From a virus (lineage: Duplodnaviria > Heunggongvirae > Uroviricota > Caudoviricetes): a stretch of 10,342 nt of DNA. Made by a program: the position numbers and the translations under genes. The first letter of the stretch is position 1. Each line of letters opens with the position of its first letter. Below are positions 1,949 through 10,342 of the stretch, piece by piece. The notes beneath the pieces are model-generated. The model worked only from the letters and a program-made list of their open reading frames with translations, was not told the origin of the DNA and searched no databases. The DNA lies in the IMG/VR virus record IMGVR_UViG_2663763154_000010; one strand, written 5' to 3'.

Positions 1949-2542
1949 ATGCTTATTGGCTATGTACGCGTGTCAACAAATGACCAGAACACGGAATTGC
2001 AGCGTAATGCGCTGGAGTGTGCAGGATGTGAGCTGATTTTTGAGGATAAAATCAGCGGCACGAAGTCTGACCGACCGGGACTGAAAAAACTGCTCAGAAC
2101 ATTATCAGCAGGTGACACTCTGGTAGTCTGGAAGCTGGACAGGCTGGGGCGTAGTATGCGGCATCTGGTCATTCTGGTTGAGGAACTGCGCGAACGCGGC
2201 GTTAATTTTCGCAGCCTGACAGATGCTATTGATACCAGCACGCCGATGGGGCGTTTTTTCTTTCATGTGATGGGTGCCCTGGCAGAAATGGAGCGAGAAC
2301 TCATTGTCGAGCGGACACGCGCCGGACTGGAAGCAGCCAGAGCCAAAGGTCGTATTGGTGGCAGACGACCGAAACTCACCACGAGTGAGTGGGAGCAGGT
2401 CGGACGGTTGCTGGCTGCGGGGGAATCTCGTCAACGTGTGGCGCTGATTTTTGATATTGGCCTGTCCACGCTCTATAAAAAATTCCCCTCATCAGCGACA
2501 AAGAATAAATTGTGTCATCCCTTAGCCAACCGGGACAAATAG
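1949..2542 (+). CDS. Site-specific DNA invertase, serine recombinase (Gin/Hin/Pin/Cin family)
   Basis: The translation from the third Met, MLIGYVRVSTNDQNTELQRNAL...GRRPKLT...STLYKKFP, has the resolvase/invertase N-terminal catalytic domain with the active-site Ser in the YVRVS motif and a C-terminal helix-turn-helix. AGGGGG lies 7 nt upstream of the ATG at 1949. The ORF track start at 1943 is too close to that RBS. Confidence 0.93.
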   Translation: MLIGYVRVSTNDQNTELQRNALECAGCELIFEDKISGTKSDRPGLKKLLRTLSAGDTLVVWKLDRLGRSMRHLVILVEELRERGVNFRSLTDAIDTSTPMGRFFFHVMGALAEMERELIVERTRAGLEAARAKGRIGGRRPKLTTSEWEQVGRLLAAGESRQRVALIFDIGLSTLYKKFPSSATKNKLCHPLANRDK

Positions 2543-2601
2543 CCTGACATCTCCGGCACAACTGAAAATACCACTCACCTATTAACCACGGAGTTAAACG
2601 G

Positions 2602-3792
2602 ATGAGTGACTATCATCACGGCGTGCAGGTGCTGGAGATTAACGACGGCACCCGCGTCATTTCCACCGTATCCACCGCCATTGTCGGCATGGTCTGCACA
2701 GCCAGCGATGCGGATGCGGAAACCTTCCCCCTCAATAAACCGGTGCTGATTACCAATGTGCAGAGCGCAATTGCAAAGGCCGGTAAAAAAGGCACGCTGG
2801 CGGCATCGTTGCAGGCCATCGCCGACCAGTCAAAACCGGTCACCGTTGTCGTGCGTGTGGAAGATGGCACCGGTGACGACGAGGAAACGAAACTCGCGCA
2901 GACCGTTTCCAATATCATCGGCACCACCGACGAAAACGGTCAGTACACCGGACTGAAAGCCCTGCTGGCGGCGGAATCGGTAACCGGTGTTAAACCGCGT
3001 ATTCTCGGCGTGCCGGGACTGGACACCAAAGAGGTGGCTGTTGCACTGGCATCAGTCTGTCAGAAGCTGCGCGCTTTCGGGTATATCAGCGCATGGGGCT
3101 GTAAAACCATTTCCGAGGTGAAAGCCTACCGCCAGAATTTCAGCCAGCGTGAGCTGATGGTCATCTGGCCGGATTTCCTCGCATGGGATACGGTCAGCAG
3201 CACCACCGCCACCGCGTATGCCACCGCCCGTGCGCTGGGGCTGCGCGCTAAAATCGACCAGGAGCAGGGCTGGCATAAAACGCTGTCCAATGTCGGGGTA
3301 AACGGTGTTACCGGCATCAGTGCCTCTGTATTCTGGGATTTGCAGGAGTCCGGCACCGATGCTGACCTGTTGAACGAGTCAGGTGTCACAACGCTGATTC
3401 GCCGTGACGGTTTCCGCTTCTGGGGTAACCGTACCTGCTCGGATGACCCGCTGTTCCTTTTTGAAAACTATACCCGCACCGCGCAGGTGCTGGCCGACAC
3501 GATGGCTGAGGCGCACATGTGGGCGGTGGACAAGCCCATCACTGTAACGCTGATTCGCGACATCGTTGACGGCATCAATGCCAAATTCCGTGAGCTGAAA
3601 ACAAACGGCTATATCGTGGATGCGACCTGCTGGTTCAGCGAAGAATCCAACGATGCGGAAACCCTCAAGGCCGGAAAACTGTATATCGACTACGACTATA
3701 CACCGGTGCCTCCTCTTGAAAACCTGACCCTGCGCCAGCGTATTACCGATAAATACCTGGCAAATCTGGTCACCTCGGTTAACAGCAATTAA
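2602..3792 (+). CDS. FI: Contractile tail sheath protein
   Basis: 396 aa, the same length as P2 gpFI. The N-terminus MSDYHHGVQVLEINDGTRVISTVSTAIVGMV is recalled from P2-family sheath proteins. GGAG RBS; position upstream of FII-E-T-U-D. Confidence 0.95.
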   Translation: MSDYHHGVQVLEINDGTRVISTVSTAIVGMVCTASDADAETFPLNKPVLITNVQSAIAKAGKKGTLAASLQAIADQSKPVTVVVRVEDGTGDDEETKLAQTVSNIIGTTDENGQYTGLKALLAAESVTGVKPRILGVPGLDTKEVAVALASVCQKLRAFGYISAWGCKTISEVKAYRQNFSQRELMVIWPDFLAWDTVSSTTATAYATARALGLRAKIDQEQGWHKTLSNVGVNGVTGISASVFWDLQESGTDADLLNESGVTTLIRRDGFRFWGNRTCSDDPLFLFENYTRTAQVLADTMAEAHMWAVDKPITVTLIRDIVDGINAKFRELKTNGYIVDATCWFSEESNDAETLKAGKLYIDYDYTPVPPLENLTLRQRITDKYLANLVTSVNSN

Positions 3793-3804
3793 GGAGCCTG
3801 ACCG

Positions 3805-4323
3805 ATGGCAATGCCGCGCAAACTCAAGTTAATGAACGTCTTTCTGAACGGCTACAGCTATCAGGGCGTCGCGAAGTCCGTCACGCTACCAAAACTGACC
3901 CGTAAGCTCGAAAACTATCGCGGTGCGGGGATGAACGGCAGCGCACCGGTAGACCTCGGCCTTGATGACGATGCGCTGTCAATGGAGTGGTCGCTCGGTG
4001 GCTTCCCGGATTCGGTTATCTGGGAGCTTTACGCCGCAACCGGTGTGGATGCCGTGCCGATTCGTTTTGCAGGCTCTTACCAGCGCGACGATACCGGCGA
4101 AACGGTGGCCGTCGAAGTGGTCATGCGTGGACGTCAGAAAGAAATCGACACCGGTGAGGGTAAACAGGGTGAAGACACCGAGTCGAAAATCTCCGTAGTC
4201 TGCACCTATTTCCGGCTGACGATGGACGGTAAGGAGCTGGTCGAAATCGACACCATCAACATGATTGAGAAGGTGAACGGCGTCGACCGGCTGGAGCAAC
4301 ACCGCCGCAATATCGGCCTGTAA
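3805..4323 (+). CDS. FII: Tail tube protein
   Basis: 172 aa with AAGGAG RBS, immediately after FI. The N-terminus MAMPRKLKLMNVFLNGYSYQGVAKSVTLPKL matches P2 gpFII. Confidence 0.95.
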   Translation: MAMPRKLKLMNVFLNGYSYQGVAKSVTLPKLTRKLENYRGAGMNGSAPVDLGLDDDALSMEWSLGGFPDSVIWELYAATGVDAVPIRFAGSYQRDDTGETVAVEVVMRGRQKEIDTGEGKQGEDTESKISVVCTYFRLTMDGKELVEIDTINMIEKVNGVDRLEQHRRNIGL

Positions 4324-4379
4324 TTTTCATCCGGTCAGCCAGGCTGACCGGTTAACCCTGATTCAGAAGTGAGAAAACC

Positions 4380-4655
4380 ATGAACAAAGAAAATGTGATT
4401 ACCCTGGACAATCCGGTCAAGCGTGGTGAGCAGGTCATCGAACAGGTCACGCTGATGAAACCCAATGCCGGGACGCTGCGCGGTGTCAGTCTGGCAGCGG
4501 TCGCGAACTCCGAAGTCGATGCACTGATTAAGGTGCTGCCGCGCATGACGGCACCGATGCTGACCGAGCAGGAAGTCGCCGCGCTGGAACTGCCTGACCT
4601 TGTGGCGCTGGCCGGTAAGGTGGTCGGTTTTTTGTCGCCGAACTCGGTGCAGTGA
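4380..4655 (+). CDS. E: Tail assembly chaperone E (zero-frame product)
   Basis: 91-aa ORF between the tube and tape-measure genes. It contains the slippery heptamer TTTTTTG at 4628-4634, 7 codons before its stop. Confidence 0.9.
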   Translation: MNKENVITLDNPVKRGEQVIEQVTLMKPNAGTLRGVSLAAVANSEVDALIKVLPRMTAPMLTEQEVAALELPDLVALAGKVVGFLSPNSVQ

Positions 4656-4807
4656 CGTTTCCGAAAAATCTGTCGGTCGATGACCTGATGGCGGATGTGG
4701 CAGTGATATTTCACTGGCCGCCATCAGAACTGTATCCCATGAGCCTGACCGAACTCATCACATGGCGCGAAAAGGCGCTCCGGCGAAGCGGAAACACGAA
4801 TGAGTAA
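4380..4807 (+). CDS. E+E': Tail assembly chaperone E+E' (programmed -1 translational frameshift product; slip at 4628-4634)
   Basis: The -1 frame downstream of T6G is open to TAA at 4805-4807 and encodes VAELGAVTFPKNLSVDDLMADVAVIFHWPPSELYPMSLTELITWREKALRRSGNTNE. The predicted fusion is 142 aa, and the E' end overlaps the start of T, as recalled for P2. Confidence 0.8.
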
Positions 4808-7247
4808 CAATGTAAAATTACAGGTATTACTCAGGGCAGTTGACCAGGCATCCCGCCCGTTTAAATCCATCCGTGCAGCGAGCAAATCGCTGTCGGGGGA
4901 TATCCGGGAAACACAAAAATCACTGCGCGAGCTGAACGGTCAGGCATCCCGTATTGAGGGATTTCGCAAGACCAGTGCACAGCTCGCCGTGACTGGTCAT
5001 GCACTTGAAAAGGCTCGGCAGGAAGCCGAAGCCCTTGCCACACAGTTTAAAAACACCGAACGTCCGACCCGTGCTCAGGCGAAAGTGCTGGAATCCGCAA
5101 AGCGTGCGGCGGAGGACTTACAGGCGAAATATAACCGCCTGACGGATTCCGTTAAACGCCAGCAGCGGGAACTGGCCGTTGTGGGAATTAATACCCGCAA
5201 TCTTGCACGTGATGAGCAGGGACTGAAAAACCGTATCAGTGAAACCACCGCACAGCTTAACCGTCAGCGTGATGCGCTGGCGCGTGTCAGTGCGCAACAG
5301 GCAAAACTTAACGCAGTAAAACAGCGTTATCAGGCAGGCAAGGAACTGGCCGGAAATATGGCCTCGGTGGGCGCTGCCGGTGTGGGGATTGCGGCGGCGG
5401 GAACGATGGCCGGAGTTAAGCTGCTGATGCCCGGTTATGAGTTTGCGCAGAAAAACTCAGAATTGCAGGCCGTGCTCGGAGTGGAAAAAGACTCCGCCGA
5501 AATGACCGCACTACGCAAACAGGCGCGCCAGCTCGGCGACAATACCGCCGCCTCGGCGGATGATGCGGCCGGTGCACAGATAATCATCGCGAAAGCGGGT
5601 GGGGATGTTGATGCCATTCAGGCGGCAACGCCGGTCACGCTGAATATGGCGCTGGCGAACCGCCGCACGATGGAAGAAAACGCCGCCCTGCTGATGGGGA
5701 TGAAATCCGCCTTTCAGCTTTCAAACGATAAGGTCGCTCATATCGGGGATGTTCTCTCCATGACGATGAACAAAACCGCCGCCGATTTTGACGGCATGAG
5801 CGATGCGCTGACCTATGCCGCACCTGTGGCAAAAAATGCCGGTGTCAGCATTGAAGAAACCGCCGCAATGGTCGGGGCGCTGCATGATGCAAAAATCACA
5901 GGCTCAATGGCGGGGACGGGAAGCCGTGCCGTGTTAAGCCGCCTGCAGGCACCGACGGGAAAAGCATGGGATGCACTCAAAGAGCTTGGAGTGAAAACCT
6001 CAGACAGCAAGGGAAACACCCGGCCAATATTTACCATTCTGAAAGAAATGCAGGCCAGTTTTGAGAAAAACCGGCTCGGTACTGCCCAGCAGGCTGAATA
6101 CATGAAAACTATTTTCGGGGAGGAGGCCAGCTCAGCCGCCGCCGTGCTGATGACTGCCGCCTCAACCGGAAAGCTGGACAAACTGACCGCTGCGTTTAAA
6201 GCCTCAGACGGGAAGACCGCAGAGCTGGTAAATATCATGCAGGACAACCTCGGCGGTGACTTTAAGGAGTTTCAGTCCGCTTATGAGGCGGTGGGGACTG
6301 ACCTGTTTGACCAGCAGGAAGGCGCACTGCGTAAGCTCACACAGACGGCCACAAAGTATGTGTTAAAACTCGACGGCTGGATACAGAAAAACAAATCACT
6401 GGCGTCAACCATTGGCCTCATTGCCGGTGGCGCGCTGGCGCTTACTGGCATCATCGGTGCCATTGGTCTTGTAGCCTGGCCGGTTATCACCGGTATCAAT
6501 GCCATCATCGCGGCAGCAGGCGCAATGGGGGCAATCTTCACGACGGTTGGCAGTGCCGTTATGACGGCCATCGGGGCGATTAGCTGGCCGGTTGTGGCCG
6601 TGGTGGCCGCTATTGTCGCCGGGGCGTTACTTATCCGTAAATACTGGGAGCCTGTCAGCGCATTCTTTGGCGGTGTGGTTGAAGGGCTGAAAGCGGCATT
6701 TGCGCCGGTGGGGGAACTGTTCACGCCACTTAAGCCGCTGTTTGACTGGCTGGGTGAAAAGTTACAGGCCGCGTGGCAGTGGTTTAAAAACCTGATTGCC
6801 CCGGTTAAAGCCACCCAGGACACCCTGAACCGTTGCCGTGACACGGGCGTCATGTTCGGGCAGGCACTGGCTGACGCGCTGATGCTGCCGCTTAATGCGT
6901 TCAACAAACTGCGCAGCGGTATTGACTGGGTACTGGAAAAACTCGGTGTTATCAACAAAGAGTCAGACACACTTGACCAGACCGCCGCAAGGACTCATGC
7001 CGCCACGTATGGCACCGGTGGTTATATTCCGGCGACCAGCTCTTATGCAGGTTATCAGGCTTATCAGCCAGTCACGGCACCGGCTGGCCGCTCTTATGTG
7101 GACCAGAGTAAAAACGAATATCACATCAGCCTGACGGGTGGTACTGCGCCGGGGACACAGCTTGACCGCCAGTTACAGGATGCACTCGAAAAATACGAGC
7201 GGGATAAACGTGCGCGCGCCCGTGCCAGCATGATGCATGACGGTTAA
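4800..7247 (+). CDS. T: Tail tape measure protein
   Basis: 815 aa, the same length as P2 gpT. The N-terminal region is rich in Q/R/A/L/E, consistent with coiled coil. There is a long Gly/Ala/Ile-rich hydrophobic block (about 6400-6660) and a C-terminal domain. It follows the E/E' frameshift pair as in other tail modules. Confidence 0.95.
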   Translation: MSNNVKLQVLLRAVDQASRPFKSIRAASKSLSGDIRETQKSLRELNGQASRIEGFRKTSAQLAVTGHALEKARQEAEALATQFKNTERPTRAQAKVLESAKRAAEDLQAKYNRLTDSVKRQQRELAVVGINTRNLARDEQGLKNRISETTAQLNRQRDALARVSAQQAKLNAVKQRYQAGKELAGNMASVGAAGVGIAAAGTMAGVKLLMPGYEFAQKNSELQAVLGVEKDSAEMTALRKQARQLGDNTAASADDAAGAQIIIAKAGGDVDAIQAATPVTLNMALANRRTMEENAALLMGMKSAFQLSNDKVAHIGDVLSMTMNKTAADFDGMSDALTYAAPVAKNAGVSIEETAAMVGALHDAKITGSMAGTGSRAVLSRLQAPTGKAWDALKELGVKTSDSKGNTRPIFTILKEMQASFEKNRLGTAQQAEYMKTIFGEEASSAAAVLMTAASTGKLDKLTAAFKASDGKTAELVNIMQDNLGGDFKEFQSAYEAVGTDLFDQQEGALRKLTQTATKYVLKLDGWIQKNKSLASTIGLIAGGALALTGIIGAIGLVAWPVITGINAIIAAAGAMGAIFTTVGSAVMTAIGAISWPVVAVVAAIVAGALLIRKYWEPVSAFFGGVVEGLKAAFAPVGELFTPLKPLFDWLGEKLQAAWQWFKNLIAPVKATQDTLNRCRDTGVMFGQALADALMLPLNAFNKLRSGIDWVLEKLGVINKESDTLDQTAARTHAATYGTGGYIPATSSYAGYQAYQPVTAPAGRSYVDQSKNEYHISLTGGTAPGTQLDRQLQDALEKYERDKRARARASMMHDG

Positions 7248-7261
7248 GGAGGTGACGAAAA

Positions 7262-7741
7262 ATGATGCTCGCGTTAGGTATGTTTGTTTTTATGCGCCAG
7301 ACGCTGCCACACCAGACCATGCAGCGTGAATCAGATTATCGCTGGCCGTCAAATTCCCGTATCGGTAAACGGGATGCCTTTCAGTTTCTCGGTGTTGGCG
7401 ATGAAAACATCACGCTTGCCGGTGTGCTTTATCCTGAACTGACCGGCGGAAAGCTGACGATGACCACGCTCAGGCTGATGGCAGAGGAAGGCCGGGCGTG
7501 GCCGTTGCTGGATGGCACCGGCATGATTTACGGCATGTATGTCATCAGCAAGGTGAGTGAAACAGGGAGTATTTTCTTTGCAGACGGCACACCCCGAAAA
7601 ATTGATTTTACGCTGTCGCTCACCCGTGTTGATGAATCACTGGCCGCGCTTTATGGCGATATCGGTAAACAGGCGGAATCGCTCATCGGTAAGGCTGGCA
7701 GTATGGCGGCTAAATTCACGGGTATGACGGGGGCGGAATAA
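7262..7741 (+). CDS. U: Tail protein U
   Basis: 159 aa with AGGAGG RBS. The sequence MMLALGMFVFMRQTLPHQTMQRESDYRWPSNSRIGKRDAFQF matches P2 gpU. Its stop overlaps the D start (TAATG). Confidence 0.95.
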   Translation: MMLALGMFVFMRQTLPHQTMQRESDYRWPSNSRIGKRDAFQFLGVGDENITLAGVLYPELTGGKLTMTTLRLMAEEGRAWPLLDGTGMIYGMYVISKVSETGSIFFADGTPRKIDFTLSLTRVDESLAALYGDIGKQAESLIGKAGSMAAKFTGMTGAE

Positions 7742-8904
7742 TGCTGGATGCGCGGACATTTTATGCAGGCAGTACGCTGACGCCGGATTACATGCTGATG
7801 CTCGACAGCAGGGATATTACCGGCAATATCAGCGACCGTCTGATGAGCATGACCCTGACGGATAACCGGGGCTTTGAGGCTGACCAGCTTGATATTGAAC
7901 TGAACGATGCCGACGGGCAGGTCGGGCTGCCGGTTCGTGGCGCTGTCCTGACGGTGTATATCGGCTGGAAAGGTTTTGCCCTGGTATGCAAAGGGAAATT
8001 TACCGTTGATGAGGTTGAACACCGGGGCGCGCCGGATGTGGTCACCATCCGTGCCCGGAGTGCAGATTTTCGCGGGACGCTCAATTCCCGCCGGGAAGGC
8101 TCATGGCATGACACCACGCTCGGTGCGATTGTTGAGGCGATAGCCTCCCGTAACAGGCTGGAAGCCAGTGTCGCTCCGTCACTGGCAGGAATTAAAATCC
8201 CGCACATCGACCAGTCGCAGGAGTCTGATGCGAAATTCCTGACCCGTCTTGCAGAACGCAACGGCGGTGAGGTCTCGGTAAAAATGGGAAAACTGTTGTT
8301 TCTCAAAGCGGGGCAGGGGGTGACGGCCAGTGGTAAAAAAATCCCGCAGATTACCATCACCCGCAGCGACGGCGACCGTCATCATTTTGCGATTGCTGAC
8401 CGTGGAGCTTACACCGGCGTAACGGCAAAGTGGTTACACACCAAAGACCCGAAGCCGCAAAAGCAGAAGGTAAAACTGAAACGCAAAAAGAAAGAGAAAC
8501 ACCTGCGCGCACTGGAGCACCCGAAAGCGAAACCGGTCACGCAGAAGAAAGCGCCAAAAGTACCGGAAGCGCGCGAAGGTGAATACATGGCCGGTGAGGC
8601 TGACAACGTTTTTGCACTGACCACGGTATATGCCACGAAAGCACAGGCCATGCGCGCCGCTCAGGCGAAGTGGGACAAACTGCAACGGGGTGTGGCGGAG
8701 TTCTCCATCAGCCTGGCTACCGGTCGGGCAGATATTTACACGGAAACACCGGTTAAAGTGTCAGGCTTTAAGCGCGTCATAGACGAGCAGGACTGGACAA
8801 TCACTAAGGTGACACATTTTCTGAATAATAGCGGCTTCACGACGTCCTTAGAGCTTGAGGTCAGGCTTTCTGATGTGGAGTACGAAACAGAAGATGATGA
8901 GTGA
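7741..8904 (+). CDS. D: Tail protein D (late control gene D family)
   Basis: 387 aa, the same length as P2 gpD. Translationally coupled to U. Contains the family's Lys-rich low-complexity linker (KPQKQKVKLKRKKKEKHLRALEHPKAKPVTQKKAPK). Confidence 0.95.
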   Translation: MLDARTFYAGSTLTPDYMLMLDSRDITGNISDRLMSMTLTDNRGFEADQLDIELNDADGQVGLPVRGAVLTVYIGWKGFALVCKGKFTVDEVEHRGAPDVVTIRARSADFRGTLNSRREGSWHDTTLGAIVEAIASRNRLEASVAPSLAGIKIPHIDQSQESDAKFLTRLAERNGGEVSVKMGKLLFLKAGQGVTASGKKIPQITITRSDGDRHHFAIADRGAYTGVTAKWLHTKDPKPQKQKVKLKRKKKEKHLRALEHPKAKPVTQKKAPKVPEAREGEYMAGEADNVFALTTVYATKAQAMRAAQAKWDKLQRGVAEFSISLATGRADIYTETPVKVSGFKRVIDEQDWTITKVTHFLNNSGFTTSLELEVRLSDVEYETEDDE

Positions 8905-8922
8905 TGTGATTTATTTATCTAT

Positions 8923-8951
8923 TTGTTTTGTAAAGATAAATTAACTAAAAT
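8923..8951 (+). promoter_or_regulatory. Putative sigma70-type promoter for ogr
   Basis: TTGTTT (8923-8928), a 17-bp spacer, then TAAAAT (8946-8951), about 35 nt upstream of the ogr ATG. The -35 hexamer is weak, so this is a by-eye call. Confidence 0.3.
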
Positions 8952-8985
8952 GGCAACATCAACAAAACCGGAAGAGGTGCTCGCG

Positions 8986-9204
8986 ATGTTTCATTGTCCT
9001 TTATGCCAGCATGCCGCACATGCGCGTACAAGCCGCTATATCACTGACACGACAAAAGAGCGTTATCACCAGTGTCAGAACGTGAATTGCAGCGCCACGT
9101 TCATCACCTATGAGTCGGTACAGAGATACATCGTGAAGCCGGGAGAAGTCCACGCCGTAAGGCCGCACCCGTTGCCGTCAGGGCAGCAAATTATGTGGAT
9201 GTGA
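8986..9204 (+). CDS. ogr: Ogr, zinc-finger transcriptional activator of late genes
   Basis: 72 aa starting MFHCPLCQHAAHARTSRYITDTTKERYHQCQNVNC, with the C-X2-C-X22-C-X4-C zinc-binding arrangement. GAGG lies 8 nt upstream of ATG 8986. The longer ORF from 8923 is an upstream in-frame extension, and 8923-8951 is better read as the promoter. Confidence 0.9.
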   Translation: MFHCPLCQHAAHARTSRYITDTTKERYHQCQNVNCSATFITYESVQRYIVKPGEVHAVRPHPLPSGQQIMWM

Positions 9205-9212
9205 TCACAAAA

Positions 9213-9240
9213 ATAGCCCCTCAGTTGAGGGGCTTTATTT
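9213..9240 (+). terminator. Rho-independent terminator after ogr
   Basis: Perfect 8-bp GC-rich stem AGCCCCTC (9215-9222) / GAGGGGCT (9227-9234) with a 4-nt loop, followed by TTATTT. Confidence 0.7.
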
Positions 9241-9247
9241 ATGGTCG

Positions 9248-9267
9248 ATGTGGACGCTATGTGGACA
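9248..9267 (+). repeat. Two direct repeats ATGTGGAC spaced 11 bp apart; candidate integrase arm-type binding sites
   Basis: ATGTGGAC at 9248-9255 and 9259-9266 (the second extends to TGTGGACA at 9260-9267), between the ogr terminator and host DNA, where the P' arm of a P2-type att site is expected. Confidence 0.4.
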
Positions 9268-9332
9268 GCGGTTGACATAAATCCATTTATATCATCAGGT
9301 TAGGTGCTTTTTTGTGACACCATCCCTGTCTT

Positions 9333-9358
9333 CCCCCACATGATGTGGGGTTTTTTTT
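9333..9358 (+). terminator. Rho-independent terminator, probably the host cpxP 3' UTR / CpxQ terminator
   Basis: Stem CCCCACA (9334-9340) / TGTGGGG (9344-9350) with a 3-nt loop, followed by T8 (9351-9358). Confidence 0.7.
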
Positions 9359-9439
9359 ATCCTCAATTTGCCTGCTGCTTAATGCATTGCAGATGATTTG
9401 CTTCCGTTATACTAGCGTCAGTTGATAGCGGGAGTATTT

Positions 9440-10342
9440 ATGAATCAATCTTATGGACGGCTGGTCAGTCGGGCGGCGATTGCTGCGACGGCGATGGCTT
9501 CGTTGCTATTGCTGATTAAAATTTTTGCATGGTGGTATACCGGGTCGGTGAGTATTCTCGCCGCGCTGGTGGATTCGCTGGTGGATATCGGCGCGTCGTT
9601 GACGAATTTACTGGTGGTGCGATATTCCCTGCAACCTGCCGACGATAATCACTCGTTTGGTCACGGTAAAGCTGAGTCCCTCGCGGCGCTGGCGCAAAGT
9701 ATGTTTATCTCCGGTTCGGCACTATTCCTGTTTTTGACGGGTATTCAACATCTGGTATCTCCAACACCGATGACAGATCCAGGCGTCGGGGTTATCGTGA
9801 CAATTGTGGCGCTAATTTGTACGATTATCCTTGTCTCGTTTCAGCGGTGGGTGGTGCGCCGGACGCAAAGCCAGGCGGTGCGGGCTGATATGCTACATTA
9901 CCAGTCTGATGTTATGATGAACGGCGCAATTCTGCTGGCGCTGGGGTTGTCTTGGTACGGCTGGCATCGCGCCGATGCTCTGTTTGCATTGGGAATCGGC
10001 ATCTATATTTTATATAGCGCGTTACGCATGGGATATGAGGCGGTACAGTCATTACTGGATCGCGCATTGCCTGATGAAGAACGGCAAGAAATTATTGATA
10101 TCGTGACTTCCTGGCCGGGTGTTAGCGGCGCTCACGATCTTCGCACGCGGCAGTCAGGGCCGACCCGCTTTATTCAGATTCATTTGGAAATGGAAGACTC
10201 TCTGCCTTTGGTTCAGGCACATATGGTGGCGGATCAGGTAGAGCAGGCTATTTTACGGCGTTTTCCGGGATCGGATGTGATTATCCATCAGGACCCCTGT
10301 TCCGTCGTACCCAGGGAGGGTAAACGGTCTATGCTTTCATAA
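9440..10342 (+). CDS. fieF: Cation diffusion facilitator family Fe2+/Zn2+ efflux transporter FieF (YiiP)
   Basis: 300 aa starting [59 protein letters not shown], recognised as E. coli FieF. GGGAG lies 5 nt upstream of ATG 9440. The ORF track start at 9422 is a TTG extension. Confidence 0.93.

Follow-up and report, generated by a model that had tools for sequence, protein, structure and literature searches.

A phage P2-type E/E+E' frameshift site in a P2-like prophage of Escherichia coli

The prophage and its tail operon

The window, that is, the whole 10,342-nt stretch of DNA analysed, carries on its + strand a P2-type contractile-tail operon, as mapped from its open reading frames (ORFs) and a Pfam scan of the full length, with the gene order FI-FII-E-E'-T-U-D-ogr adjoining E. 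coli fieF. The sheath gene FI (2602-3792) is followed by the tail tube gene FII (3805-4323; PF04985 Phage_tube, 203.6 bits), which matches P2 FII and is the upstream neighbour of E. Gene E (4380-4655) is an ORF with a 91-aa zero-frame product belonging to the tail assembly chaperones (PF10109 Phage_TAC_7), and E' (4634-4807) is its -1 frame extension, recognized by translation and by PF06528 Phage_P2_GpE. Downstream lie the tape measure gene T (4800-7247; PF10145 PhageMin_Tail, 155 bits; P2 gpT), U (7262-7741), D (7741-8904) and a gene for an Ogr/Delta zinc-finger regulator (8923-9204), all on the + strand, and a fieF-like host cation-efflux gene with Pfam Cation_efflux and ZT_dimer domains ends at 10342.

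Megablast against phage records gave 95-97% identity to P2-like phages over 2510-9361. The right end, comprising ogr and fieF, is matched in part in all 5426 complete E. coli genomes surveyed, and the full ogr/fieF junction is present in 692 of them. Based on the identity to P2 and the occurrence of the junction in E. coli genomes, the window represents E. coli chromosome with a P2-like prophage integrated beside fieF. The E/E' locus itself occurs in 1583 of the 5426 genomes (~29%).

The element is P2-like rather than P2 itself. Its att region beside fieF differs, and it carries an invertible tail-fibre segment and an invertase that are unmatched in canonical P2-type records. The prophage-host junction occupies 9205-10342, where homology to P2 continues through the ogr terminator (~9215-9237) to ~9295, beyond which the sequence diverges from the P2 attP core. 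The ogr-like ORF was called from a TTG start as 93 aa, with the Ogr/Delta zinc finger at residues 24-70; P2 Ogr has 72 aa (219-nt CDS), and the true ogr start is probably an internal ATG. At the opposite end, the invertible tail-fibre segment spans 1-2542. Within it, 27-nt inverted repeats at 35-61 and 1867-1893, which we take to resemble hix/gix/cix-type crossover sites, flank ~1.8 kb. The + strand of the segment encodes a Collar-domain fibre tip (10-516) and a Caudo_TAP assembly protein (513-1124), the - strand encodes an alternative TAP (1096-1611) and an alternative fibre tip (1520-1921), and a serine DNA invertase (1943-2542; Pfam Resolvase and HTH_7) adjoins them. Canonical P2-type records match only from ~2510, and the tail-fibre segment is covered only by phages of the magyaro, pro483 and MET_P1 types.

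The E/E' overlap and its counterpart in phage P2

Gene E runs from an ATG at 4380 to a TGA at 4653-4655. Near its end, at 4626-4636, the sequence reads GGTTTTTTGTC and is translated through the codons GGT (4626), TTT (4629) and TTG (4632), followed by TCG. These codon positions place the heptamer T_TTT_TTG at 4628-4634 on the + strand in X_XXY_YYZ phase with E; the coordinates in the preliminary description, 4626-4636, exceed the heptamer by 2 nt at either side. In the -1 frame, a TAA (4616-4618) precedes an open stretch that begins at 4619 and ends with a second TAA at 4805-4807. Bounded by the first of these stops and by the stop of E, the 37 nt at 4619-4655 are the only stretch in which both frames are open, so the shift must fall within them. 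After a slip at the heptamer, 57 sense codons follow (4634-4804), the first being GTC at 4634, and the joined reading frame (4380..4634, 4634..4807) encodes an E+E' product of 142 aa, whose C-terminal portion would be the sole form in which E' is expressed. The ATG of T at 4800 overlaps the E' stop (ATGAGTAA).

The preliminary description had proposed a slippery T-TTT-TTG read as Phe-Leu in the zero frame, at which a -1 slip leads into a 57-codon frame that ends at 4807 and overlaps the tape-measure start. The phase of the heptamer with E, the -1 translation and the position of the T ATG relative to the E' stop agree with it on each of these points. Its placement of the site upstream of the tape measure gene likewise holds, as E/E' lies between the tube gene FII and T. 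The bare heptamer motif is common, with four copies in the window against 2.4 expected, and by our own arithmetic any X_XXY_YYZ would arise in a 37-nt stretch by chance in ~5% of cases (~12 in-phase positions at 1/256 each). The non-random features are the phase of the heptamer and its place within the 37-nt overlap, and conservation is the stronger argument.

Both halves of the predicted fusion belong to tail protein families. The zero-frame ORF matches PF10109 with 47.1 bits (cut-off 25) over residues 7-85, and the -1 frame matches PF06528 with 76.3 bits (cut-off 23; E-value 1e-21) over fusion residues 104-139. PHROG assigned E to family 103 ('tail') and E' to families 1756 and 6416, tail families in both cases. 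NCBIfam returned no match for E or E+E', the sequence search returned no PDB relative, and Rfam gave no match anywhere in the window. Read by eye, the predicted 142-aa product, in the version with the junction GFFVAEL, equals a record named 'GpE family phage tail protein [E. coli]' (P0013). Protein records differ at this junction, which is GFLVAEL in phage Wphi (P0010) and GFFVAEL in the NCBI E. coli 142-aa record (P0013). The former would correspond to a tandem slip once Leu-tRNA has bound, the latter to slippage in the P site while the A site is empty. RefSeq, examined at one E. coli locus identical to this one, annotates E' as a separate 51-aa CDS from GTG with no fusion, and several phage records likewise list E' as a separate small CDS; recognition of the slip site during genome annotation would thus yield the correct protein, the E+E' fusion.

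The region 4330-4830 is 99% identical to phage P2 (AF063097), and the slip site and its flanks are identical. The genes and their order, the heptamer, the 37-nt overlap, the 91- and 142-aa products and the overlap with the start of T are common to both, and the 99% nucleotide alignment implies that E differs by one amino acid (N29S) and E' by none. The P2 record annotates gpE, gpE+E' and a 'site of -1 translational frameshift', and describes gpE+E' with the words 'shares amino terminus with gpE; -1 frameshift; essential tail protein'. Together with the 99% identity, this annotation confirms the E+E' naming that had been chosen from the sequence. In P2, a -1 frameshift at TTTTTTG gives the 91-aa E and the 142-aa E+E' and operates without a downstream hairpin (PMC3091744); P2 E' overlaps the start of T, lacks a ribosome-binding site (RBS) and reaches 37 nt back into E, with T6G as the slippery sequence (PMC3931495). 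Passages in both of these papers credit the T6G site to Christie et al. 2002 (PMID 12426340).

Conservation of the slippery site and the interpretation of the locus

With the fusion as query, tblastn matched 424 phage records; in 401 of these the match extends over 80% or more of the query and is split into two pieces lying in two frames. Fifteen lineages were sampled at 38-77% identity, from phages of Klebsiella, Erwinia, Yersinia, Burkholderia, Ralstonia, Pseudomonas, Zymomonas, Vibrio, Mannheimia, Salmonella and E. coli. In all 15 of these diverse P2-like phages E' lies in the -1 frame, and the overlap contains an in-phase X_XXY_YYZ: TTTTTTG in 11 lineages, and TTTTTTT, TTTTTTC, GGGAAAG and AAATTTT in the others. 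On this sequence comparison, a heptamer whose letters vary and whose slippery form is kept is the signature of tRNA re-pairing and not of a homopolymer-dependent process.

Closer relatives were scanned with the E' alignment, one genome per species, at 80 Enterobacterales loci. T_TTT_TTN occurs at the same position in 79 of them, ending in G in 75, in A in two and in C in two. The sole exception (L057; Enterobacter sp. EA-1, CP025776.1, ~690-700) has T5 instead of T6, along with further indels and an E frame broken upstream; it was rejected as a true exception, the indels within E pointing to a likely homopolymer assembly error or a decaying prophage. The description of the site as a conserved chaperone frameshift is accordingly borne out by in-phase heptamers in 15/15 lineages and 79/80 Enterobacterales loci. 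All of the distinct relatives (77/77) keep the T6 run unchanged. The first T of the heptamer comes from a fourfold-degenerate Gly codon, which is GGT in each distinct sequence (75/75); the remaining Gly codons of E vary freely, with 1.4-1.8 bits of synonymous entropy. Three loci fix the shift at the heptamer: in L066, L091 and L016 its first T is precisely where the -1 frame becomes open, leaving an overlap of just 13 nt in the case of L091. What has been observed directly is the layout of the locus, its homology, and the conservation of the site together with its phase and frame.

Three other explanations of the locus were weighed against a ribosomal frameshift. Independent production of E', as a 39-51-aa peptide started at GTG 4652 or at the conserved ATG 4688 with the T-run incidental, would agree with the 51-aa GTG ORF at 4652-4807 in the ORF list and with the separate 'GpE family phage tail protein' CDS annotated by RefSeq, GenBank and other pipelines in many genomes; moreover, the Pfam domain begins at E' residue ~19, where Met (ATG 4688) is found in 77 of 78 close relatives. 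However, the GTG of the window occurs in just one of 77 distinct sequences, and no E' start codon is conserved, ATG, GTG and TTG all being absent from the E' frame between heptamer and domain in 60 of the 77 (RBS strength for E' was judged by eye). The Met encoded at 4688 is replaced by Ile, Trp or Ala in several distant phages, and this ATG has no upstream SD-like sequence and sits inside the 5' arm of a hairpin of -25 kcal/mol. An independent start would also leave the invariant in-phase heptamer and the GGT codon unexplained, and the literature describes E' as devoid of an RBS and expressed as a -1 extension (PMC3091744, PMC3931495). We consider this reading very improbable.

Fusion at the mRNA level, through RNA polymerase slippage on T6 that adds a U to some transcripts, is to our judgement just as improbable. 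The homopolymeric T6 is invariant in 77/77 close relatives and is extended to T7 in some P2-like phages, as slippage would permit. Six T are nevertheless short for efficient slippage by bacterial RNA polymerase, for which 8-9 or more are usually needed. The run is always in X_XXY_YYZ phase (15 lineages, 79/80 loci), whereas slippage sites consist of a long run whose phase is irrelevant, and the GGGAAAG and AAATTTT of distant relatives fit tandem tRNA re-pairing rather than homopolymer runs. Fusions of this kind can arise through transcriptional slippage (PMC5009743); we count against it here the P2 efficiency, reported as two- to threefold above that of lambda (PMC5009743). Still less credence can be given to an intrinsic terminator or attenuator within E, formed by a stem at 4607-4628 with the T-run and lowering expression of T, U and D. 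A pattern scan did find an 8-pair stem with T-run at this place, folding at -10.5 kcal/mol (z -2.05). Yet the terminator scan returned three sites in the region against 1.4 expected, the stem includes several G-U pairs, and at least 7 of its 8 pairs are present in only 39 of 77 relatives (median dG -6.1); in addition, the same operon continues past the stem with T, U and D, tail genes that are essential in P2. This candidate was rejected as weak and not conserved.

We therefore identify the locus, with a probability of about 97%, as the known phage P2 E/E+E' programmed -1 frameshift site, here in a P2-like E. coli prophage; nothing in the sequence counts against a P2-type frameshift. The frameshift is already known, having been characterized in 2002, and the window adds one more copy and biologically nothing new. 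According to the P2-type mechanism, most ribosomes would stay in the E frame and terminate at 4655, yielding the 91-aa gpE. A minority would reach U_UUU_UUG with the P site occupied by Phe-tRNA on UUU (4629-4631) and the A site by UUG (4632-4634), slip back one base there and re-pair with UUU/UUU. The -1 frame would then be read from GUC (4634) for 57 codons to UAA (4805-4807), and the predicted product is a 142-aa gpE+E' that combines the N-terminus of gpE with a C-terminal Phage_P2_GpE domain. Synthesis of the fusion, and an efficiency two- to threefold above that of lambda, come from the literature on P2-type phages.

The analogy with lambda G/GT made in the preliminary description is the one drawn in the literature (PMC5009743, PMC3931495). 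Like E/E', lambda G/GT consists of two overlapping ORFs between the major tail (tube) and tape-measure genes, and ribosomes that slip by -1 shortly before the first ORF ends make a fusion protein as the minor product; E/E' (4380-4807) shows this lambda-type placement between FII (PF04985) and T (PF10145). The lambda heptamer is G_GGA_AAG, unlike the P2-type T_TTT_TTG, and the lambda proteins were reportedly studied by Levin et al. in 1993 and by Xu et al. in 2004, 2013 and 2014. There is no amino-acid similarity between lambda G/GT and P2 E/E+E' (PMC3931495), the P2 tail is contractile, and P2-type frameshifting is the more efficient by the two- to threefold factor given above (PMC5009743). 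In lambda, the two products must be present in a balanced ratio, and their binding partners are the tape measure and tube proteins (PMC5009743). The ratio requirement and the binding partners have been demonstrated for lambda only; for P2 we infer the chaperone mechanism and the ratio requirement from this analogy, by which gpE and gpE+E' would act together on the tape-measure protein T in tail assembly and be absent from the virion.

Sequences flanking the heptamer and hairpins in the region

Folding and comparison of relatives revealed no conserved hairpin 3' of the heptamer at a spacing of 5-9 nt, in agreement with PMC3091744. A small hairpin directly 3' of the heptamer was considered as a stimulator and rejected, with a z of -0.35 and only a CCG/CGG 3-bp core conserved, starting 3 nt past the heptamer; its outer pairs are retained in about half of the relatives.

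On the 5' side, conservation points to the SD-like AGGUGGUC (4618-4625, + strand) as a candidate stimulator or pause element. Among the distinct relatives, A4618, G4619, G4620 and T4621 never vary (77/77), and nearly all have G4622 (72/77). Although 4619 is the third base of a Lys/Gln/Glu codon, where a change would be synonymous, it is fixed: AAG is used in 66/66 cases at this codon, as opposed to mixed AAA/AAG at the other Lys codons of E. Apart from one G-U pair, AGGUGGUC is complementary to the 3' end of 16S rRNA, 5'-GAUCACCU-3'. The AGGUG core (4618-4622) ends 5 nt before the heptamer, and the full AGGUGGUC spans to 2 nt before it. Most of the 15 sampled distant phages also have SD-like G-rich motifs, judged by eye, at 4-17 nt upstream. 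A systematic study of E. coli heptamers did not place U_UUU_UUG among the most efficient, and searched for SD-like sequences 6-17 nt upstream, so that AGGUG at 5 nt falls at the edge of its range (PMC4066793).

A possible parallel is E. coli dnaX (A_AAA_AAG with a 5' SD and a 3' hairpin), where a -1 slip likewise takes place on a heptamer downstream of an SD sequence, the equivalent role of AGGUG here being putative. The window differs from dnaX in having no conserved 3' hairpin at 5-9 nt and in a much shorter distance between SD-like element and heptamer, 5 nt compared with ~10 nt in dnaX; moreover, its frameshift product is longer, not shorter, than the zero-frame product.

On the sequence pattern, AGGUG is a plausible stimulator or pause site, despite its short distance of 5 nt to the heptamer. 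Christie et al. (2002) reportedly found E+E' to be essential and the frameshift efficiency to be ~10%. The AGGUG element is a candidate answer to how ~10% slippage could arise on a heptamer outside the top tier without 3' structure. The fuller proposal, in which AGGUG(R)UY lifts the mediocre U_UUU_UUG to P2-type efficiency without 3' structure, and/or the hairpin at 4685-4727 tunes translation of T, is tentative and in our view more doubtful than probable. The observations on the SD-like AGGUG and on the hairpin within E' may be new.

This hairpin is a stable 43-nt RNA structure with 10-bp and 6-bp stems (4685-4727, + strand) in the single-coding part of E'. Its folding energy of -25.2 kcal/mol corresponds to a z of -5.4 against dinucleotide shuffles and of -3.1 against synonymous recodings; it is stronger than 99.9% of the recodings, and one of 104 control windows was equally extreme. 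Over 71 distinct sequences, 94% of cells are paired, mostly via sequence conservation, and covariation is weak, with a compensatory change at only one pair. Lying 50 nt from the heptamer, the hairpin is probably not a frameshift stimulator. It may tune translation of T, whose start overlaps the E' stop, and if so could couple gpT synthesis to frameshifted ribosomes. Hardly any variation is seen in the stem at the rare Ser codon TCA and at GCG/CCG, and phages of Burkholderia, Zymomonas and Vibrio have hairpins at the same spot in a different register. A second hairpin at 4764-4779, over the WREKA codons, was rejected as no stabler than its synonymous recodings (z -0.05).

A further hairpin occupies the intergenic gap between FII and E (4331-4351). 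Its strong 9-bp stem (CCGGUCAGC...GCUGACCGG; -16.5 kcal/mol, z -4.0) has no T-tract and is retained in P2 with one G-U change, and a Mannheimia phage record annotates a rho-independent terminator at the equivalent place. It may serve as an attenuator or stabilizer that divides the abundant sheath and tube genes from the low-copy E-T-U-D genes.
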